Below, one piece after another: positions 7,631 through 41,696 of a DNA stretch of 43,041 nucleotides (position 1 is its first letter; each line of letters opens with the position of its first letter). The notes beneath the pieces are model-generated. The model was given only the letters and a program-made list of their open reading frames with translations, had not been told where the DNA came from and did no database searches. The DNA is from a phage, in NCBI GenBank assembly GCA_026180655.1, contig GCA_026180655.1_4341.1. One strand, written 5' to 3'. Made by a program: the position numbers and the translations under genes.

Positions 7631-7665
7631 CTTGCACACCCCAATATAATAGCGTACTATTCACT
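7631..7665 (+). promoter_or_regulatory. Conserved promoter-like element, class A copy 1 (CTTGCACACCCC-AATATAATAG-CGTA-CTATTCA)
   Basis: TATAAT at 7645-7650 overlapping palindrome AATAG-N4-CTATT (7648-7661); near-identical copies at 16310, 27219 (rc) and 28441 (rc); gene start 27 nt downstream. Confidence 0.45.
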
Positions 7666-7691
7666 TACACCAACAATGAAGGGGTTTTAAA

Positions 7692-7883
7692 ATGTCCAGT
7701 TTACCAATTTCCTTAATCCTGTTTGCACTGCTCGTGTACTTTGCGCCTTTTTTAGTTGCCTACTTCCGCAACCATAAAGCAAAGCTGGCGATATTCATGG
7801 CTAACTTATTTCTCGGATGGGTTCTGTTGCCGTGGGTATTCATTTTAATCTGGGCTTGCAACTCGAACGTGAAAGAGAAGTAA
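7692..7883 (+). CDS. Small two-TM membrane protein, superinfection-immunity (Imm)-like
   Basis: 63 aa, two hydrophobic helices, motif FRNHKAKLAIFMANLFLGWVLLPWVFILIWA recalled as typical of Imm-type superinfection immunity proteins; GAAGGGG RBS; opposite strand to flanking tail genes. Confidence 0.45.
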   Translation: MSSLPISLILFALLVYFAPFLVAYFRNHKAKLAIFMANLFLGWVLLPWVFILIWACNSNVKEK

Positions 7884-7921
7884 GCTACTATAAGACAAAT
7901 CCTAAACACGAGGAAGTAAGC

Positions 7922-9052
7922 ATGGCCCGGAAGAAAATAACCGACGAGCAGTTACAGGAAGAATTGAACGCCGGAACAAAGATTATCGACATATCCCGTA
8001 AATACGGCATCTCAGACCGCGTAATTCGTATCCGTAAAGCGAAGCTAGCTAAAAAAGGTGTAGGCCACGGGCGCGACGTTAGCCACCTTGTCCCGGACGG
8101 CTACAAGATTAAAGGAACGTCGTCACTGGTGGACGAGTTCGGCAACACTAAACTGCAATGGGTTAAGACCGACACCGACGCCGAACGCCAGGTAGAGTTG
8201 ATGAAAGCCGTAATCGAGGGCATGAAGTCAGAGATTACGCCAGTTGCGCCTGTTAAAGCCACCCGCACCAAACGTGACGATAAACTACTCAATCTTTACA
8301 CGGTATCTGATTTACATCTCGGTATGCTGGCCTGGGCCGACGAGAGCGGCGACGACTGGGATATGAAGATTGCGGAAGACCTGTTTTCTCGATGGTTCGA
8401 CGCAGCGTTTCAGAAAGCACCGGATGCAGGAACAGGAGTCATTAACCTGCTAGGCGACTTCGCACACTTCGATAGTCTTGATGCCGTTACCCCTGAGTCG
8501 CGTCATGTGTTGGACGCAGACACGCGCTATCAGAAACTTGTACGCTACATGATTCGTATGGTCCGCCGTGTTGTAGATATGGCGCTGGTTAAACATAAAA
8601 CCGTTCGCTTGCTTATTGTGCAAGGGAACCACGACGAAAGCGGAATGATTTGGTTGGCTGAGATGTTCAGTACGCTGTATGATAACGAGCCGCGTGTGTT
8701 CGTCGATACGTCGCCGGACGTTTACAAGATGGTACGGCACGGCAAAACGACGCTGTTCTTCCATCACGGGCATAAAGCACGATTCGACGCTATCGAACCG
8801 GTTATGATTGCCAAGTTCCGCAAAGCGTTTGGTGAGAGCGTTTACAGCTACGCCCACGTAGGCCACCTGCACCATCAGAAGATTGTAGAAAGCCGTAATA
8901 TGATTGTTGAGCAACACCGCACCTTAGCGGCGAAAGACGCCTACGCCTCTCGCGGTGGATGGATGTCGGGCCGGAGTGCAAATGTAATTACTTATAGCGC
9001 CGAATATGGTGAGGTCGCACGTTTAACTATTTCACCGGAGATGCTGGGATGA
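7922..9052 (+). CDS. Calcineurin-like metallophosphoesterase with N-terminal HTH domain
   Basis: Motifs D-x-H (VSDLHLG), GD-x-x-D (LGDFAHFD), GNH[DE] (QGNHDE), HHGH and GHLHH; N-terminal 60 aa HTH-like (IIDISRKYGISDRVIRIRKAKL); GAGGAAG RBS before ATG 7922. Confidence 0.65.
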   Translation: MARKKITDEQLQEELNAGTKIIDISRKYGISDRVIRIRKAKLAKKGVGHGRDVSHLVPDGYKIKGTSSLVDEFGNTKLQWVKTDTDAERQVELMKAVIEGMKSEITPVAPVKATRTKRDDKLLNLYTVSDLHLGMLAWADESGDDWDMKIAEDLFSRWFDAAFQKAPDAGTGVINLLGDFAHFDSLDAVTPESRHVLDADTRYQKLVRYMIRMVRRVVDMALVKHKTVRLLIVQGNHDESGMIWLAEMFSTLYDNEPRVFVDTSPDVYKMVRHGKTTLFFHHGHKARFDAIEPVMIAKFRKAFGESVYSYAHVGHLHHQKIVESRNMIVEQHRTLAAKDAYASRGGWMSGRSANVITYSAEYGEVARLTISPEMLG

Positions 9053-9279
9053 CTTCAAAATACAACCGCACAATGACAAATACTCACGGCAGCACAATGG
9101 CAGTAGATGTTTATGATGTGCTCCGCGCCTTTGATATACGCGACCCAGCACTACAGCACGCATTGAAGAAGCTATTGTGCATGGGGTTGCGCGGGCACAA
9201 AGATACAGGAACCGACTTAGCGGAAGCAATTGAAAGTCTGGAGAAGTTACGGGAGTATCGAAGCAATATTGACGAGTAA
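9049..9279 (+). CDS. Hypothetical protein (76 aa), translationally coupled to the phosphoesterase gene
   Basis: ATGA start/stop overlap with 7922..9052; followed by a terminator. Confidence 0.35.
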   Translation: MTSKYNRTMTNTHGSTMAVDVYDVLRAFDIRDPALQHALKKLLCMGLRGHKDTGTDLAEAIESLEKLREYRSNIDE

Positions 9280-9280
9280 G

Positions 9281-9310
9281 AAAAAAGGCCCCGAAAGGGG
9301 CCTTAGTTTT
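9281..9310. terminator. Bidirectional rho-independent terminator
   Basis: AAGGCCCC-GAAA-GGGGCCTT hairpin flanked by A-run on one side and T-run on the other; sits between convergent genes. Confidence 0.6.
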
Positions 9311-10481
9311 ATGCGTAGGTGATGCGCTGGATAACAATAGACGACTGGTACTGGTTGCCTGTGGACTGCCCTTCTATACTTTGGGTAATTGATTCCGGGC
9401 CAGATATTTCTGGTGTAACCGCCGTGAGTTCCGCGCGTTTCAAACTGAAAGACATAGCCCCGTTTACCCCCGCCAGAATAGAGTTAATCTCTACCTGCTG
9501 TTCGTTGATAAACTTCTGAATCATCGCCATGTCATACAGCTTACCGGAGATGGAGAAGGTGTTAGCCGCGCGGCTACGCTCAACAAATGCAACGTTAGTG
9601 TTGCCGAGTTCGAACTGCGCAGACGCGCTGTTATCGTTGGTGATGGTCAGGCTGTCACAACGCAACGGCGTAGAACCGTCGAACACGGAAACGTCAACCG
9701 AGGAGAACGGCTCATCAGTGAAAGTCACCGTAGAGAAATCAGAGCCAGACGGCTGCGCGGCGAGAATCTCCTGACTGCGACCGATGAATGGGAAGCTGCC
9801 AGTTACCATCGCGTTAACAGCCTGTTCGATGGTAAAACCAGAAACTTCCACGCCTTTGGTAAGCGTGTACGCGTCAGCCCCGCCGCACTGGCCTTTGTAC
9901 CAGGTGAGAATAGAGAACGTCTTACACTGGCTACCGGTTTCCAGTTTGTCGCCGGTCTTAGCCGCAGTAGTGGCAGTCTCCGTGGTGAGGGTGTGCTGAA
10001 TGCCCGCACCGGTAACAACCGTAGCCGTTACCGCGGTGACGATAAACGGTTTTGCGTTGTCGCCCGTTAAGTCGGTAAACGCGATCAGGTCGCCTACTTC
10101 AACGCCATCAGAAATAAAGCTGCCATCAGCACGGGTGAACGTCTTGCCCGCTGGTGCGACGGTAATAGACAGGTCAGTCAAGGATACACCTGATTGCCAC
10201 GTAGAGCCTAAAGCACCTGCCAGCCAGTCATCCTGGCTTTTCGAACTAAGCTCGATGGCGTATTCTCCGCTAACCTGTTTGTTACCGGTGCGGATGGACG
10301 TAGTTTCACGGCTGCCGTCCAGTTCGTTGGAGGTCAGCGTGTCGCGGGTAATAGCAGGAACGCCACCTGTGTTACGCAACGGCGACCAGACAGGGTTGTC
10401 CGGGGTTACGCCAGGGGTAGTTTCCGCCACATAGAATTGCGCGGTATTAGCGCCCTTAAAAGGAGTTGTAGCCATATTCAC
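9309..10481 (-). CDS. Major tail protein, putative
   Basis: 390-aa Thr/Ser/Gly-rich ORF preceding the chaperone/tape measure block; strong terminator downstream. Confidence 0.5.
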   Translation of the reverse strand: MNMATTPFKGANTAQFYVAETTPGVTPDNPVWSPLRNTGGVPAITRDTLTSNELDGSRETTSIRTGNKQVSGEYAIELSSKSQDDWLAGALGSTWQSGVSLTDLSITVAPAGKTFTRADGSFISDGVEVGDLIAFTDLTGDNAKPFIVTAVTATVVTGAGIQHTLTTETATTAAKTGDKLETGSQCKTFSILTWYKGQCGGADAYTLTKGVEVSGFTIEQAVNAMVTGSFPFIGRSQEILAAQPSGSDFSTVTFTDEPFSSVDVSVFDGSTPLRCDSLTITNDNSASAQFELGNTNVAFVERSRAANTFSISGKLYDMAMIQKFINEQQVEINSILAGVNGAMSFSLKRAELTAVTPEISGPESITQSIEGQSTGNQYQSSIVIQRITYA

Positions 10482-12258: not shown

Positions 12259-12771
12259 TTAACCACGGTACACGTTAAACGAGAAGCCATTGTTAAGGCC
12301 GCCGCAAAGAAGCGGGCGCAATGCATCATCTGCTGCGGTGATTGATGTAGTAGCGCCAGAGCTGCCGTTGTTGAAGTAGGTGACGGTTACTGCACCCTCT
12401 ACGCGCTCGGTCTGTACTGAACGTCCGTCGGAGTTAGCCCGCACCTCTGTACCCGTGCCGTATGTTACCGCAGCGATTACCTGCGCAAGAATCACCTGCT
12501 TCGGAATGACATTGTTCGATACAGGGAAACCATTCAACGTTACGCCGATGCGAGGGTACGCAAGAGACTGTTCGGCGGATACACGGCGACCGCACATCTG
12601 CGGTTCGGATAGGCCGACGTACGTAGCGCCATTTCGCAGGGCTACTTCAGCGTCAGTATCGTCGACAGGTAACTCAAGACCATAATTAGCCGCTAACGCG
12701 CGGGCGTCAGTCAGGCTAACGTAACTGTCAGCATTCGGGACTATTGAACCGTCTTCCACGATTAGCGGCAT
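12259..12771 (-). CDS. Head-tail connector/adaptor (gp6-like), putative
   Basis: 170 aa; N-terminal region (LTDARALAANYGLELPVDDTDAEVAL) resembles adaptor-protein N-termini; position after capsid genes. Confidence 0.35.
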   Translation of the reverse strand: MPLIVEDGSIVPNADSYVSLTDARALAANYGLELPVDDTDAEVALRNGATYVGLSEPQMCGRRVSAEQSLAYPRIGVTLNGFPVSNNVIPKQVILAQVIAAVTYGTGTEVRANSDGRSVQTERVEGAVTVTYFNNGSSGATTSITAADDALRPLLCGGLNNGFSFNVYRG

Positions 12772-15412: not shown

Positions 15413-15494
15413 AGTCAGTATGTCCCCTGGACGTTGGAACCCGGGCCACCCGGATTTACATGTCAAGAATAAATTATTCCAACATGCAAGGCAA

Positions 15495-15758
15495 CTATTC
15501 CAGAATATTCCTCACGTAATCCTGCAACATGAACACTTTCAGCCTCAGTTGCCGTACGCATTCGGTGTTCTGAACGTCTATGGCTAAATCCTCGTCAGCG
15601 TCGCTACTTGGCGCTGCCAGTTTGCACGGCGGCTGCATCATCGTCGTATCCGGGGATGGAATTGGCGTTGGCGATGGCACGGGACTTGAGCAGGACGCGA
15701 GCATCGTCGAAAGTGCACACGCTGCGACCAGGCGTTTTAATGTACTTAACGACTTCAC
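15495..15758 (-). CDS. Outer-membrane lipoprotein, Rz1-like o-spanin candidate
   Basis: GTG start; signal peptide with lipobox LASC (MKSLSTLKRLVAACALSTMLASC), Pro-rich mature part (SPVPSPTPIPSP); starts inside the Rz-like ORF in another frame and extends beyond it. Confidence 0.45.
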   Translation of the reverse strand: MKSLSTLKRLVAACALSTMLASCSSPVPSPTPIPSPDTTMMQPPCKLAAPSSDADEDLAIDVQNTECVRQLRLKVFMLQDYVRNILE

Positions 15759-15990
15759 GGGTAATAACCTCTGATTTCGTCTTGCCTTCGTTGTCAGCGG
15801 CTGCGGCCTTCGATTCGTCCTGCTGCTGCCGTTGTGTTTTCTTCGCTAACTCGGCCTGCGCTTTCTGCTGTTGTTGCGAAACGAGATTAGCCCGGCCTTC
15901 GTTCCAGCCGCTGCGATACTGATAAATGCCGTGTGCGTAAGCCAGGATGATGAAACATGCTCCAGCTACGACAGTTGCTTTAAGATTCAT
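15604..15990 (-). CDS. Rz-like i-spanin candidate
   Basis: N-terminal TM helix (ATVVAGACFIILAYAHGIY), Gln/Lys/Ala-rich coiled coil, C-terminal KTPGRSVCTFDDARVLL resembling T7 gp18.5-type Rz proteins; AGGAG RBS. Confidence 0.45.
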   Translation of the reverse strand: MNLKATVVAGACFIILAYAHGIYQYRSGWNEGRANLVSQQQQKAQAELAKKTQRQQQDESKAAAADNEGKTKSEVITREVVKYIKTPGRSVCTFDDARVLLKSRAIANANSIPGYDDDAAAVQTGSAK

Positions 15991-16309
15991 GTTTCTCCTT
16001 TCTCGATAAGTAAAGCCCCGCCTTAAAGCGGGGCGCTAGTCCTTATCATTTAAACACAGAAACGGCGTAATCTCAGTAAACCAGTTACTTTTTACACAAG
16101 CAATAGAGTATGGCCCTTCCTAACGCGTCAGCGTAACTACACTCATGACTTACGTCCCGCTCCGTTACCTGCCCGCGCCGCGGTCGCTTGTTCATACTTC
16201 ACAAGCTCAGGTGGAGCTTAGCATATTTTCAGTGAAAAGTCAACTATTCGAATAGTTTATTCCAACATTTACAATTTAGTGGAATAACTGGAATACATAA
16301 CCAAATAGT

Positions 16310-16345
16310 TTGCGCACCCCAATATAATAGGGTACTATTCAGTTA
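16310..16345 (+). promoter_or_regulatory. Conserved promoter-like element, class A copy 2 (TTGCGCACCCC-AATATAATAG-GGTA-CTATTCA)
   Basis: TATAAT 16323-16328; palindrome AATAG-N4-CTATT at 16326-16339; gene start 28 nt downstream. Confidence 0.45.
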
Positions 16346-16372
16346 TTGAAACGAGAGATAAGGAACTTAAAG

Positions 16373-16585
16373 ATGAAAGAATTAATTATCGCGGTATTGA
16401 TGACATTGGCAGTTTCACTGGTAATCGCTGCTGTGGTACGTAGCTTAGATAAACACGGGTGCGAGAACTACGGAGATATCACAGGCCGAGAGGTAATGTA
16501 TAGTTACACAACTTGTTATGTAAAAACTGATAGGGGGTTTATCCCCCGTGAAGAACTTAATTTTAGAGCAGCGACACATGAATAA
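16373..16585 (+). CDS. Small membrane-anchored protein (moron), unknown function
   Basis: ATG 16373 with AAGGA RBS; N-terminal TM helix (LIIAVLMTLAVSLVIAAVV), 4 Cys in extracytoplasmic part; own promoter-like element and terminator; opposite strand to capsid module. Confidence 0.4.
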   Translation: MKELIIAVLMTLAVSLVIAAVVRSLDKHGCENYGDITGREVMYSYTTCYVKTDRGFIPREELNFRAATHE

Positions 16586-16587
16586 AA

Positions 16588-16613
16588 CTAAGGCCCCGTA
16601 AGGGGCCTTTTAT
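16588..16613. terminator. Bidirectional rho-independent terminator
   Basis: AAGGCCCC-GTAA-GGGGCCTT hairpin with flanking T/A runs. Confidence 0.55.
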
Positions 16614-17074
16614 CATTCTGGCTTAGTGACCTTCGCCGCTTTGCTAACTGCCTCTACACCATCGGCATCGGTAACTTTAACGAAGTATTCACCGACCGCG
16701 TTAACCGTCAGAGACAAAGCCTCTTCTGGAGCGTTGACCACTTCCTTCCCGTCTTTGTACCAGGTCAGAGCATACGGCGCTTTACCCGCTTTAACTTCGA
16801 CAGTGATAGTTGCGCTGCCGTCTGCCAGTTCAGCGTCCTGCGGTTGCGCAGAGAAATACACGTCGCCAGCATCAGCCAGATACGGAATTTCATAAAGCAT
16901 ACCCGCCGCTGGCAGCGCAATACCAGTTTTATACGCAAACGGCATATCGTCTACCGGTGTGCCTAGTACACTTTCATCCTCAATAAATACCACGTTCTCG
17001 CCAGAGCCAGACACACGGGCATACTGGACTACGCGGCGCGCAGGTACATCAGTTACTTTGAAAAAGCCCATCAT
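16613..17074 (-). CDS. Ig-like domain protein, capsid-associated, putative
   Basis: 153 aa; C-terminal Ig-like segment (ATITVEVKAGKAPYALTWYKDGKEV...GEYFVKVTD); follows head morphogenesis gene. Confidence 0.35.
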   Translation of the reverse strand: MMGFFKVTDVPARRVVQYARVSGSGENVVFIEDESVLGTPVDDMPFAYKTGIALPAAGMLYEIPYLADAGDVYFSAQPQDAELADGSATITVEVKAGKAPYALTWYKDGKEVVNAPEEALSLTVNAVGEYFVKVTDADGVEAVSKAAKVTKPE

Positions 17075-19680: not shown

Positions 19681-20931
19681 TTAAAGTGCGAAAGTCACCG
19701 GGATGTTGATTACTGGTTTAACCACCGGCATCTCGTAAACTACAGGATAGCCGAGAGCATCCGCCATATGGTCGATGATGCCGTCTTTAGCTGGCTCTCC
19801 GTTATCGTCGTATGCCTGCTGCTCCAGCGTCTTCGCTATCTCTGGGCATAAGTGGTCGTTAACCCACAGCTTACCTTTTTCCAGCGCGGTATTCACGGCC
19901 AAAACACGGTCTTTAACCGGTGGGTTGGCAGATTTAGCGCGAACATCGAACCCGGCCTGCTGTAGTAACGCGATATCGGAGATTGACGCCGAGTTTGTCT
20001 TGCGGTTCTTGCCGCTGGCGTCTGGGTAAATGACGATGCGGTGGCCTTGCGACTTCCACTTCTCGGTAATCACGCGCACGGTGTCCGGCGTATCAAACAG
20101 ACCTTTCAGTTCTGCCACCGCGTGCCAGCCGTCTTTACGTTGCACATACACGGCGCTTGCGTTCTTCGTAACGTTGAAGTCCTGCCCGATGTACAGTGTG
20201 TCGCCAGGTTGGATTGTCTCTTTGCTGCGGTGCTTACGGCGGTCGTACGCGTAATACACGCTGCCAGATGTCAGGTTAACGAACTCACCGTTCAGATAGG
20301 CATTAATCAGTTGCGCCGGGTAAGTCTCTGTCAGCGAGCTAATATAATCCGGCGGCAGGAATCTGGCGTTCTCATGAGTTGATGCCTGCACCATAGAGTA
20401 GCTCGGCGTCGGGTTCTCTTTGAACTTGGCGTAGACGAACTTGAACCCTTCCGGCGTCGTGGTTACAGAGATGTGGTTTGTTACGCCAGGAATAACAAGA
20501 CGCATACGGGCTACGATTTTGTTCCACGCCAGCTCAGCTTTCTCGCGGCTCAATACATCGAGCTCATCCACGACCGCCGCAGCTATTTTGAAACCGACTA
20601 TCGAGCCAGGGTTATCCATTGAACGGCAGATAACCGTACCGAGCACCGTCTTACCGCGAGTGACCACGACTTCCTTGTCGCCAGATTTAACCAGCACATC
20701 GAGGCCGAGCATGTTAGCCGCTTCTTCGAATGTCGGGTAGAAGATGTCGCGGATAGCTGGGTATGTGGGGCCGAAGTATCCGAGGCGCGTACCGGGGTGC
20801 TTGAGCATAAATGTAAGCAGGTCCAGACAGCCGACGAAAGTCTTGCCGCTCCCGAAGCCGCCGACATAAGCCTTGTATTTGTTATTGCAATTCAGGAACA
20901 GTGCCTGTGGTGCGGATAGCTGAATACTCAT
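19681..20931 (-). CDS. Terminase large subunit
   Basis: Walker A GGFGSGKT, Walker B-like VVDELD, C-terminal nuclease-type acidic residues; ATGA coupling to upstream small-subunit ORF. Confidence 0.8.
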   Translation of the reverse strand: MSIQLSAPQALFLNCNNKYKAYVGGFGSGKTFVGCLDLLTFMLKHPGTRLGYFGPTYPAIRDIFYPTFEEAANMLGLDVLVKSGDKEVVVTRGKTVLGTVICRSMDNPGSIVGFKIAAAVVDELDVLSREKAELAWNKIVARMRLVIPGVTNHISVTTTPEGFKFVYAKFKENPTPSYSMVQASTHENARFLPPDYISSLTETYPAQLINAYLNGEFVNLTSGSVYYAYDRRKHRSKETIQPGDTLYIGQDFNVTKNASAVYVQRKDGWHAVAELKGLFDTPDTVRVITEKWKSQGHRIVIYPDASGKNRKTNSASISDIALLQQAGFDVRAKSANPPVKDRVLAVNTALEKGKLWVNDHLCPEIAKTLEQQAYDDNGEPAKDGIIDHMADALGYPVVYEMPVVKPVINIPVTFAL

Positions 20932-27192: not shown

Positions 27193-27218
27193 CTTCCGTC
27201 TCTCCTCTCGTCTGTGTA

Positions 27219-27254
27219 AATGAATAGTATCCTATTCTATCCCAGCGTGCAAGT
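27219..27254 (-). promoter_or_regulatory. Conserved promoter-like element, class A copy 3 (minus orientation)
   Basis: Reverse complement reads CTTGCACGCTGGGATAGAATAGGATACTATTCA; palindrome AATAG-TATC-CTATT at 27223-27236. Confidence 0.4.
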
Positions 27255-27554
27255 AAATTTTATTGGTGTTTTAGAGATAATTGCTCACTGCGAATCCAGT
27301 AGTATCTCGGACGTCTGGCCCACTGCCGCCAACGCATAACACGGTACTTGTTGCCGTCTGACTCAACAATAAGCCCGAATCGCTTTTCTCCGTTTCTACC
27401 GGTCCAGGTTACGATGTCGTTCAGTTTCGTTGTTGCATCTCCTGCAATAGTCGCTTCGATTGTTGCGTTTGGTGAAATAGAACAAAAATGAGAAAAATGA
27501 TACGCTGCTGTGTAGCAGCGTAAGTCACTCAGTAAAATCCCAAACTATTGAACA

Positions 27555-27928: not shown

Positions 27929-28228
27929 TTACTTAGCACGGCAACCTCCCTCAGAGTCGTCGGCACAGGCATCATGATTCGATGCCGTTCTTATAAACAG
28001 CTTACCTTTGCGCTGTAACAAATCCATTGCCACAGCACCTGCCCCTGACTTATTAGGGCTACGCAGCAGGCTAAAATTCCATACCCTGGTCTTTGTTACA
28101 TCCCTGGCGTTACATACCCACAAAGCACCATTTTCTCTCAGGTCCAGTAAATCAGAAATGTTGAAATTATTTACCGGGATAAACCCGCTAATGAACTGGT
28201 GTTCACATTGAGGTAATTCTTCCATCAC
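27929..28228 (-). CDS. Hypothetical protein
   Basis: 99-aa ORF. Confidence 0.3.
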   Translation of the reverse strand: MMEELPQCEHQFISGFIPVNNFNISDLLDLRENGALWVCNARDVTKTRVWNFSLLRSPNKSGAGAVAMDLLQRKGKLFIRTASNHDACADDSEGGCRAK

Positions 28229-28440: not shown

Positions 28441-28478
28441 TAAGTGAATAGTATCCTATTATGTTGGGGTGTGCAAGA
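28441..28478 (-). promoter_or_regulatory. Conserved promoter-like element, class A copy 4 (minus orientation)
   Basis: Reverse complement reads CTTGCACACCCCAACATAATAGGATACTATTCAC; palindrome AATAG-TATC-CTATT at 28447-28460. Confidence 0.45.
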
Positions 28479-31610: not shown

Positions 31611-31636
31611 TAAAAAGAAAGGGGCGTTAAGCCCCT
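31611..31636 (-). terminator. Terminator hairpin for the minus-strand XRE gene
   Basis: AGGGGC-GTTAA-GCCCCT hairpin; on minus strand followed by TTCTTTTTATC. Confidence 0.45.
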
Positions 31637-31842
31637 TCACCTAACGCCAGCCACTTGGCGTCTACTTGCAGCACTTCCGCCAGTTTAAACAGCGTCGCCG
31701 GGCGGACGTCCTGAGTTACACCCAGTGCAAGCTGGTTAATCGCACCCTGGGAAACGCCAGCCAGGACAGCCAGACGGCGCTGGGAGATGCCGAGTTCTTT
31801 ACGGCGTTGTTCTACACGGATGCCTAGTTCAGATGGTTGCAT
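31627..31842 (-). CDS. XRE-family HTH transcriptional regulator (Cro/CI-like)
   Basis: 71 aa, LGISQRRLAVLAGVSQGAINQLALG helix-turn-helix; AAGGAG RBS; only minus-strand gene inside rightward operon. Confidence 0.75.
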   Translation of the reverse strand: MQPSELGIRVEQRRKELGISQRRLAVLAGVSQGAINQLALGVTQDVRPATLFKLAEVLQVDAKWLALGEGA

Positions 31843-31862: not shown

Positions 31863-31891
31863 TTGATATGTGAATAGTACCATATTAATTA
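31863..31891. promoter_or_regulatory. Operator/promoter element with imperfect palindrome (AATAG-TACC-ATATT)
   Basis: TTGATA at 31863-31868; palindrome 31873-31886; about 30 nt upstream of the XRE gene start on the other strand. Confidence 0.35.
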
Positions 31892-31906
31892 TTTTAGAAA
31901 AGCCCA

Positions 31907-31935
31907 TTGACATGTGAATAGCCCGCTATTATAGT
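31907..31935 (+). promoter_or_regulatory. Sigma70-type promoter, class B (TTGACA-N17-TATAGT) with operator palindrome in spacer
   Basis: TTGACA 31907-31912, TATAGT 31930-31935, palindrome AATAG-CCCG-CTATT 31917-31930; GAGGAGAG RBS and ATG 31967 downstream. Confidence 0.6.
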
Positions 31936-31966
31936 TAGCATATACCAAACGAGAGGAGAGAAACAA

Positions 31967-35297: not shown

Positions 35298-35316
35298 TAT
35301 CTGAATCAATTTAACT

Positions 35317-35341
35317 AAGGCCCTTCATTGGGCCTTTTTAC
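35317..35341 (+). terminator. Rho-independent terminator
   Basis: AGGCCC-TTCATT-GGGCCT hairpin followed by TTTTTA. Confidence 0.5.
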
Positions 35342-41531: not shown

Positions 41532-41665
41532 ACATCATAGCCCCGATCCCGGCATTGCAAAAACGTATCAAGGAACTTGAGGAGGAGGTCTTGCGACTAC
41601 GCCAGCAAAGAGACGCCGCTAATGCGCAACTGGCGTTTGTACTGGAGAAGTTATCAGAAGAGTAG
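41528..41665 (+). CDS. Small coiled-coil protein (45 aa)
   Basis: ATG 41528 overlapping upstream stop; KRIKELEEEVLRLRQQRDAANAQL; below ORF-track cutoff. Confidence 0.25.
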   Translation: MNIIAPIPALQKRIKELEEEVLRLRQQRDAANAQLAFVLEKLSEE

Positions 41666-41668
41666 AGA

Positions 41669-41696
41669 AAAGGCCCCGTTTGGGGCCTTAGTTTTA
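41669..41696. terminator. Bidirectional rho-independent terminator between convergent operons
   Basis: AGGCCCC-GTTT-GGGGCCT hairpin with flanking A- and T-runs. Confidence 0.6.

Follow-up and report, generated by a model that had tools for sequence, protein, structure and literature searches.

The interval between the Rz gene and the Hoc-like gene of the phage DNA analysed here (43,041 nt, the whole stretch being hereafter called the window) consists of two juxtaposed elements: a variable unit on the plus strand (~16296-16612), which carries a small gene between a candidate promoter and a terminator, and a core region that serves the minus strand (15991-16295). The explanation proposed for the interval, namely a moron-type unit placed beside a core regulatory region at an operon boundary of a virulent siphophage of the subfamily Guernseyvirinae, is considered probable, and all the regulatory roles assigned below are deduced from sequence and from comparison with relatives. 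An initial annotation of this DNA had described the interval as a second moron unit combined with a palindrome-rich regulatory hub of 380 bp in the middle of the late operon. All the features that it had listed were recovered where it had placed them. The single hub was not, since about 300 bp (15991-16295) form a core serving the minus-strand Rz-capsid genes, and this core is not part of the moron because it is found in occupied and empty genomes alike.

A variable slot at an operon boundary

The window is the genome of a Kagunavirus-like coliphage. The comparison with relatives was made mainly at positions 15900-16700, which matched 181 phage records, nearly all from Kagunavirus and some from Jerseyvirus (subfamily Guernseyvirinae), the best match being Escherichia phage EC3-1, with 95% identity across the full query. 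Gene order was obtained by mapping the genes of phage Bas76 onto the window. On the minus strand it runs from terS, terL, portal and head morphogenesis genes to the Hoc-like gene (16613-17074), Rz (15604-15990), Rz1, scaffold and capsid genes, and on to the tail genes. The replication genes lie on the plus strand from 28.4 kb, small early genes run leftward from 28.4 kb, and the holin and endolysin genes are located ~8 kb away from the Rz/Rz1 site. Neither the window nor the gene map of a close relative contains an integrase gene or a lysogeny module, and the related phage fBC-Eco01 was reported to be devoid of lysogeny genes (PMC9825357). In every relative, whether its slot is filled or empty, a terminator is placed 3′ of the Hoc-like gene, and the site is therefore the boundary of two minus-strand transcription units rather than the middle of a late operon.

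The extent of variation at this boundary was assessed in 42 loci, comprising 38 related loci recovered from IMG/VR by means of the Hoc-like protein, together with relatives from GenBank. On either side of the slot, the flanks (16200-16345 and 16586-16700) were mostly ~90-96% identical in nearly all of these loci, and the sequence between the flanks ranged from 127 to 790 nt and encoded at least 14 unrelated products. The cargos, with sizes in amino acids (aa) and including one type with two open reading frames (ORFs), were the following:

70-aa protein, in the window, EC3-1, L009 and L019
small proteins of 34, 57, 67, 81, 83, 94, 106 and 92+62 aa
two-ORF type, 61+79 aa
114-aa lipoprotein
173-aa clamp-like protein
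141/179-aa HNH/endonuclease VII-like protein
D12-class adenine methyltransferase
DpnA-like methyltransferase, distinct from the D12-class one, intact, the 734-nt cargo of L014 and L015

The slot was empty in 9 of the 42 loci, six of them presenting the GGAATA repeats of the core followed directly by the terminator and three lacking the promoter alone, and a search with the junction sequence recovered the contiguous empty junction in 64 of 179 GenBank relatives. These empty genomes read GTGGAATAACTGGAATA, followed by ~14 nt, the terminator and the end of the Hoc-like gene, which places the beginning of the variable unit just past 16295. In every occupied slot, a plus-strand ORF begins 20-30 nt past the promoter, and the promoter element, referred to below as class A, is kept upstream of every cargo type and is missing from empty slots. 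The second moron unit proposed initially is borne out by this promoter-gene-terminator block, present or absent among collinear relatives, by the replacement of its gene by many unrelated ones and by its atypical base composition, the ORF having a G+C content of 40.8% versus 50.9% in the genome, 54.3% in Rz and 51.7% in the Hoc-like gene. Moreover, the 81-aa cargo (L008 and L021) has a 77.5%-identical copy that is the second gene of the early leftward operon of the window (27986-28225, minus strand), indicating that genes move between early operons and the slot. While the ORF is exchanged, its promoter, leader and terminator are kept, and these would probably act as homology arms for swaps, whether with other phages or with early operons of the same phage.

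The morons of HK97 and lambdoid phages, as reportedly described by Juhala and colleagues in 2000, are extra genes with their own promoter and terminator placed between two late-operon genes. The unit resembles them in the layout of a candidate promoter and a predicted terminator of its own, in its presence or absence between collinear relatives, in its atypical base composition, in its location in the structural region on the opposite strand and in a cargo unrelated to its neighbours. It differs from them in that its candidate promoter belongs to a set of operator-controlled early/middle promoters native to the phage and in that one fixed slot takes many cargos with the promoter, leader and terminator constant, which is nearer to a cassette site than to independent insertions. 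Furthermore, these phages are virulent, and expression from a repressed prophage is not applicable here. In its architecture the unit thus agrees well with the definition of a moron, as distinct from the classical usage based on prophage expression.

No description of the slot was found in the literature search, in which only a motif reported by PHIRE was recovered. As morons and accessory-gene hotspots are well known, the slot is unsurprising in principle and represents a fairly ordinary, although clear, further example of a kind of accessory-gene exchange already recognized. Its relevance lies in providing a natural and well-delimited expression site for interchangeable accessory genes in Guernseyvirinae, whose cargos are a small set of candidates for roles in anti-defence, exclusion or host takeover in a phage group widely used in therapy and biocontrol, and in being an evident place for engineered payloads without disturbing essential genes.

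A first opposite-strand island, in the tail module (7632-9311), has the same build, with a class A promoter and operator (7632-7667) and a bidirectional terminator of the same type (9285-9304), and carries a DNA-repair exonuclease gene (7922-9049) and small ORFs.

The candidate class A promoter, its operator and a candidate regulator

The elements of the variable unit in the window, together with the other exact copies of its operator, are as follows:

16310-16345, plus strand, candidate class A promoter with operator: –35 TTGCGC at 16310-15, spacer of 17 nt, –10 TACTAT at 16333-38
16326-39, operator AATAGGGTACTATT, overlapping the –10 of the class A promoter
16346-16372, plus strand, 5′ leader of the GAAACGAGAG class, with Shine-Dalgarno AAGGA
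16373-16585, plus strand, cargo ORF of 70 aa (213 nt), annotated as a coding sequence in EC3-1
16590-16609, both strands, bidirectional intrinsic terminator of the cargo gene (plus) and the Hoc-like gene (minus)
7648, 16326, 27223, 28447, 31917, 34581 and 38436, exact copies of the operator

The promoter-like element noticed in the initial annotation proved to be a member of a repeat family, whose further class A copies occupy 7632-7667 and two minus-strand sites, 28441-28477 and 27215-27258. The operator core AATAGNNNNCTATT (AATAG-N4-CTATT) is present in seven exact copies, and 12 are counted when one mismatch is allowed, versus 1.07 expected by chance. Five copies are of class A, with a TTGCAC-like –35, 17 nt, TACTAT and the operator over the –10, and downstream of each, on the same strand, come a leader, a Shine-Dalgarno site and a start codon (ATG). 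Three copies present the class B layout, TTGACA-nn-TGAATAG-N4-CTATTATAGT. All the operator promoters are located before non-structural genes. A palindromic site repeated at several promoters and overlapping their core elements is what characterizes Cro/CI-type operators, and the motif would appear, from its sequence and placement, to be one of them.

The same motif was described in fBC-Eco01 as seven PHIRE 'phage promoters' and read as the promoter of a phage-encoded RNA polymerase (PMC9825357). The gene map of these phages shows no RNA polymerase gene, and a repressor operator on promoters read by the host polymerase is the likelier identity for the motif. A candidate repressor is a 71-aa helix-turn-helix (HTH) protein of the HTH_3/Cro/DicA type (31627-31842, minus strand), whose gene is divergent from a class B operator promoter (31906-31936) and preceded by a degenerate operator copy (31865-31887). 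From this gene position, the protein may be proposed as the binder of AATAG-N4-CTATT, and it looks like an autoregulated regulator of all seven operator promoters. Accordingly arranged, host σ70 RNA polymerase would initiate at the class A promoter, with a predicted plus-strand start at ~16345 and a –10 overlapped by the operator. The same operator lies on six other promoters, all of non-structural (early/middle) genes, on which the 71-aa HTH protein would act as repressor. The transcript would comprise a 27-nt leader and the 213-nt ORF, ending at the bidirectional terminator. This organization recalls the lambdoid Cro/CI system in the short palindromic site that recurs from promoter to promoter, lying over the –10 or the spacer, and in the small HTH_3 protein divergent from one such promoter with a site upstream of its own gene. 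It differs in the use of seven dispersed single operators instead of tripartite OL/OR arrays and in a phage devoid of lysogeny genes, in which operator binding is predicted only.

Two features of the class A promoter speak against it. Its hexamers match the consensus at 7 of 12 positions (3/6 in the –35 and 4/6 in the –10), which is below the threshold of a simple scan, and its –10 is ambiguous, being either TACTAT with correct spacing or a perfect TATAAT (16323-28) placed 10 nt upstream and without a –35, so that the exact –10 and start are uncertain.

The leader of the window, of the GAAACGAGAGATAAGGAAC class, is common to L001, L009 and L018 and resembles the leaders that follow other early promoters. 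A second leader class, AACTTAAACAGGAG, is common to many unrelated cargos. At the other end of the unit, the hairpin at 16590-16609 with its T-run is terminator-like on both strands (folding energies of –16.3 and –15.9 kcal/mol, z = –4.5 and –3.7). The terminator ascribed to the small gene in the initial annotation is present but not that gene's own, since scoring on both strands means that the Hoc-like gene would use it as well. Further members of its family, at 9285-9304, 35305-35338 and 41664-41696, lie at other strand-switch points.

The core region and the predicted Rz leader

The features of the core region, given in the order of minus-strand transcription, are listed below:

16281-16295, two GGAATA direct repeats GGAATAACTGGAATA, closing the core on the side of the variable unit
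16250-16263, inverted repeat GGAATA-N3-TATTC in the minus-strand reading, mean conservation 0.93 in three lineages
16242-16257, perfect 16-bp palindrome AACTATTCGAATAGTT, overlapping the –35 by 2 bp, its centre at –41.5 from the predicted start
16215-16243, minus strand, candidate σ70 promoter for Rz: –35 TTGACT at 16243-16238, spacer of 17 nt, extended –10 TGcTAAGCT at 16223-15
16035-16208, minus strand, predicted untranslated leader of the Rz-Rz1-scaffold-capsid transcript, ~175 nt
16112-16187, minus strand, long imperfect hairpin whose apex is a GAC-GUAA-GUC stem-loop, with the conserved block GGAAGGGCC after it
16015-16034, minus strand, GC hairpin GCCCCGC-CTTAAA-GCGGGGC, 10-25 nt upstream of the Rz ribosome-binding site/start codon, at the end of the Rz leader

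A promoter directed toward Rz makes sense at this site because a terminator ends the Hoc-like gene in every relative. The candidate has a predicted minus-strand start at ~16208, and its counterparts read T[T/A]GACT...TGyTACGCT in the Jersey type and TGGACT...TGaTAACCT in the phiEap-2 type. Mean column conservation was 0.91 in the –35 (TTGACT/TAGACT/TGGACT) and 0.92 in the –10 (TAAGCT/TACGCT/TAACCT), versus 0.75 in the spacer, with the TG kept. A TGn motif and hexamers retained in three lineages around a variable spacer are the expected signature of an extended –10 promoter, to which this element would correspond on sequence grounds.

The sequences upstream of this promoter are also conserved, to different depths. 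The 16-bp palindrome is the only perfect one of that length in the window, and its half-sites (CTATTC|GAATAG) are, as had been noticed initially, inverted relative to those of the operator (GAATAG-N4-CTATTC). Its conservation reached 0.99 within Kagunavirus and SETP13-type phages, and the sequence is not palindromic in Jersey or phiEap-2. As evidence by itself the palindrome was discarded, because 45% of shuffled sequences hold at least one perfect 16-bp palindrome by chance, and its weight comes from its position, half-sites and conservation. The deeply conserved parts are the GGAATA-N3-TATTC repeat and the GGAATA direct repeats, not the full palindrome. The direct repeats, located at 16281 and 16290, were essentially invariant in 15 of 15 sequences from three lineages, even in distant Guernseyvirinae, and TATTCCAGTTATTCC presented a mean conservation of 1.00 across lineages. 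The motif GGAATAATTTATTC is also found upstream of the scaffold gene (15467-15480), where it is conserved in Jersey, SETP13, phiEap-2 and VSiA. Further matches to GGAATA-N3-TATTC, at 12768 and 11297, fall in ribosome-binding-site/start-codon contexts, which led to its rejection as a general late motif and left 16250 and 15467 as the only credible sites.

In the proposed mechanism, the core would restart minus-strand transcription past the Hoc-like terminator by means of an extended –10 promoter preceded by GGAATA-type protein-binding motifs and followed by the ~175-nt leader with its conserved long hairpin. The core region also offers a defined starting point for studying the timing of late expression in these phages.

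Another reading takes the near-identity of the core as merely that of a recombination arm, or as recent horizontal spread together with the slot, with no regulatory function of its own. Among the 42 relatives, the proportion of variable columns was 0.16-0.34 in the core (0.32-0.34 in the leader) versus 0.52 in the Rz coding sequence. In SETP13 (L052) the core was 94-99% identical and the adjacent Rz 56-87%, with a sharp identity step at the Rz start codon that indicates either mosaicism or very different constraint, and the slot is clearly a site of frequent exchange. The informative contrast is that with the diverged lineages (Jersey-type, phiEap-2-type and VSiA). In Jersey and phiEap-2, the intervening sequence changes around blocks that stay, namely both hexamers, the TG dinucleotide, the GGAATA motifs and the base pairing of the hairpin, and short invariant blocks amid diverged sequence are a signature of selection, which makes a mere recombination arm rather unlikely.

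Three observations weigh against the regulatory core as proposed. The identity of the SETP13 core could reflect recent recombination rather than constraint, Jersey itself being diverged there. The candidate Rz promoter was missed by the simple consensus scan, because its –10 matches the consensus at just 3 of 6 positions. Lastly, RNAalifold applied to the whole leader supported only the terminal hairpin, with little covariation elsewhere.

A different origin for late transcription would be the class A element itself, if it were bidirectional and its minus-strand reading (TGAATAG...CTATTATATT, class B-like) were the restarting promoter. A minus-strand –10-like TATATT (16328-16323) does lie in the same register as in the class B promoters, and the same arrangement precedes the tail-chaperone genes at 7640-7524. 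Against these points, there is no usable –35 (TCAATA or TTCAAT), and relatives with an empty slot lack the whole element and still keep the Rz and capsid genes, so the class A element cannot be a required late promoter and this possibility is very unlikely.

Of the two hairpins in the Rz leader, the GC hairpin, annotated initially at about 16015-16035 as part of the interval between the two genes, belongs to this leader and not to the moron. It is terminator-like on the minus strand only (–17.2 kcal/mol, z = –3.3), and its stem covaries among relatives (GCCCCGC/GCGGGGC, GCCCGGC/GCCGGGC, GCCCGAC/GTCGGGC, GTAGGGA/TCCCTAC and GTGGGG/CCCCAC). The T-run that follows it is interrupted in the window (TTTACTTAT) and missing in phiEap-2 and VSiA (UGUUACG...), in which the stem is conserved. 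As the U-tract is not conserved, a hairpin abutting the Rz ribosome-binding site would more likely serve in mRNA stability or translation tuning than in termination.

The arrangement nevertheless invites comparison with the lambda pR′-6S RNA-tR′ module, in which the lysis genes heading the late operon are directly preceded by a promoter, a ~180-190-nt leader and a hairpin. Here, too, a promoter and a ~175-nt leader are followed by the GC hairpin with UUUACUUAU right before the first gene, which is a lysis gene. A leader RNA of ~190 nt would then stop at the 16034-16015 hairpin, and an antiterminator would permit read-through to Rz, capsid and tail genes. Within the late region, additional strong minus-strand terminator-like hairpins follow the major capsid gene (13643-13622) and the major tail gene (9304-9285), and one lies in the tail-chaperone region (6969-6946). 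They imply that late transcription must restart or read through, and are in agreement with such a module. Unlike in lambda, however, the U-tract is weak in the window and absent from phiEap-2 and VSiA despite the conserved hairpin, which abuts the ribosome-binding site, and the annotation of a close relative contains no antiterminator, Q-like or otherwise, not every small ORF having been searched. A module of the pR′ type is on these grounds improbable, and the core has no more than a general likeness to late-operon control regions.

The long hairpin is the second structure of the leader. The minimum-energy fold returned this architecture in all lineages tested, with outer stems of differing sequence (GTAAC/GTTAC, CAGGGAC/GTCCCTG, AGGGGC/GCCCCT and GCGGTCGCG/CGCGACCGC), an inner stem-loop that reads GCC-GTAA-GGC in phiEap-2 and VSiA, and a GUAA cap in three groups. 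One or both hairpins could be signals of RNA processing or stability, such as an RNase III site as in T7 mRNAs, which would uncouple the Rz-capsid mRNA and shield its 5′ end. The recurrence of a long imperfect hairpin with internal loops in every lineage, in spite of different stem sequences, and the second, covarying hairpin immediately 5′ of the ribosome-binding site are consistent with this role. The fold z-score of just –1.7 for 16120-16175 and the imperfect pairing of the outer stem in several Jersey-type sequences are not, and it is regarded as possible although doubtful. Folding of the whole 291-nt region was uninformative (z = –1.3 for the minus and –2.4 for the plus strand). Rfam gave no match at the gathering score in the whole window and chance-level matches only in a permissive search of 15950-16650 (E up to 10), and no tRNA or tmRNA was detected by the corresponding scan.

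It is scarcely credible that the conservation of the leader is explained by a 36-aa ORF (16085-16195, minus strand) being a real gene. In Bas76, Sciku and fBC-Eco01 this ORF bears a hypothetical-protein annotation, and it is intact in 30 of 40 relatives, but frameshifts, stops or a lost start affect the other 10, the comparison with phiEap-2 shows indels of 17, 3 and 2 nt, no family match was obtained, and its substitutions are distributed by codon position as 13/16/12, versus 57/47/96 in Rz.

By analogy with the put sites of HK022, it may also be speculated that the leader, through its GUAA-capped hairpin and GGAAGGGCC, is a cis-acting regulatory RNA enabling terminator read-through and that the GGAATA sites and the palindrome at –41.5 are an activator site, both together forming an early-to-late switch. 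This proposal is quite unlikely. If it were true, the leader would modify RNA polymerase or mark the transcript for passing the several intrinsic terminators of the structural region, a phage protein bound at the GGAATA sites and the palindrome would switch on the Rz promoter, and a complete early-to-late switch would be available to a phage without its own RNA polymerase or sigma factor.

Other observations were made in or near the core. A plus-strand promoter-like sequence (16198-16227) and a weak plus-strand terminator (16203-16219) were dismissed, since both are conserved only within the lineage and neither has a gene downstream. In the region upstream of the scaffold gene (15413-15494), the palindrome GGAATAATTTATTC stands beside TTGACA and a hairpin CCGGGTGGCCCGG is also present, palindrome and hairpin both being kept in Jersey, SETP13, phiEap-2 and VSiA, although no –10 can be recognised. 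In the more distant, Cornellvirus-like relatives L066, L068 and L050, the Rz leader is different and longer, opening with the conserved block TTGACAC-N7-GTATAATGCC-TTGACC, and keeps the GCC-GTAA-GGC stem-loop and a hairpin by the ribosome-binding site.

The 70-aa cargo protein and other features of the window

The cargo of the window had been annotated as a membrane-anchored, Cys-containing protein of 70 aa, and the hydrophobic segment (residues 4-22) and two cysteines (Cys30 and Cys48) were indeed found. The protein matched PHROGs 26710, 18961 and 27356 (E = 3.5e-12, 1.1e-8 and 1.1e-8, respectively) over nearly its full length (residues 3-66), and membership in these families, whose function is unassigned, offers no clue to its role. 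An exhaustive search gathered 46 clusters (50% identity) of proteins of 67-92 aa, all of them with an N-terminal hydrophobic helix and the motif C-x2-Y-x3-TGRET-x-Y-x4-CYVKT...P..E...RA.TNE, in which the two cysteines are invariant or near-invariant. AlphaFold2 with the family alignment produced a model with a mean predicted local distance difference test (pLDDT) score of 92, composed of a helix (residues 2-37), three strands (41-58) and a second helix (59-68). Family relatives occur in Acinetobacter T4-like phages, Obolenskvirus, Dhillonvirus and phiEap-2. EC3-1 is the only GenBank Kagunavirus genome with the 70-aa protein, and the distant Guernseyvirinae phage phiEap-2 carries a 50%-identical homologue in the same slot. 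The homologues of Dhillonvirus and of the T4-like phage Acj61 are located among replication/early genes.

Envelope-acting small membrane proteins, made early, are known from virulent phages, namely Imm and Sp of T4, Llp of T5 and Cor of T1/phi80. The 70-aa protein is predicted to share with them its small size, membrane/periplasmic location, early expression, dispensability and patchy distribution, and has no sequence or fold similarity to any of them. The cargo would accordingly be a dispensable inner-membrane protein whose β-sheet/helix domain of ~45 residues is most likely periplasmic, as argued for by the two conserved cysteines, with a Cys30-Cys48 disulfide. With low confidence, its role may be that of an early envelope-level accessory, for example in superinfection exclusion or in interference with an envelope-associated host factor. 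This assignment is weakened by two results: the charges beside the membrane helix do not fix the topology, and no functional match was found in Pfam, NCBIfam, a PDB sequence-profile search or Foldseek against PDB. A weak PDB match to the transmembrane segment of MotB (E = 0.1) was set aside as reflecting the hydrophobic helix only, and the structure neighbours in BFVD were exclusively uncharacterised phage proteins.

The location beside Rz/Rz1 could suggest instead a lysis-timing factor, either an antiholin or a spanin modulator. The gene does adjoin the spanin genes, and an N-terminal membrane anchor with a small periplasmic domain presumably resembles T4 RI in outline. The same position, however, holds methyltransferases, a nuclease, a clamp-like protein and others, which makes the position in the slot uninformative on function. 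In addition, the promoter is of the early/middle class, homologues elsewhere lie among replication genes and the holin/endolysin genes are 8 kb distant, all of which render a lysis-timing role highly improbable.

Two further observations concern the window as a whole. The large terminase (19684-20931) is only ~54% identical to that of Bas76, versus 96% for the neighbouring portal protein and 88% for the small terminase, and the terminase was apparently swapped in as a mosaic segment. Perfect 12-bp palindromes number four in the whole window, against ~10.5 expected from length alone, a shortage that may reflect the avoidance of restriction sites.

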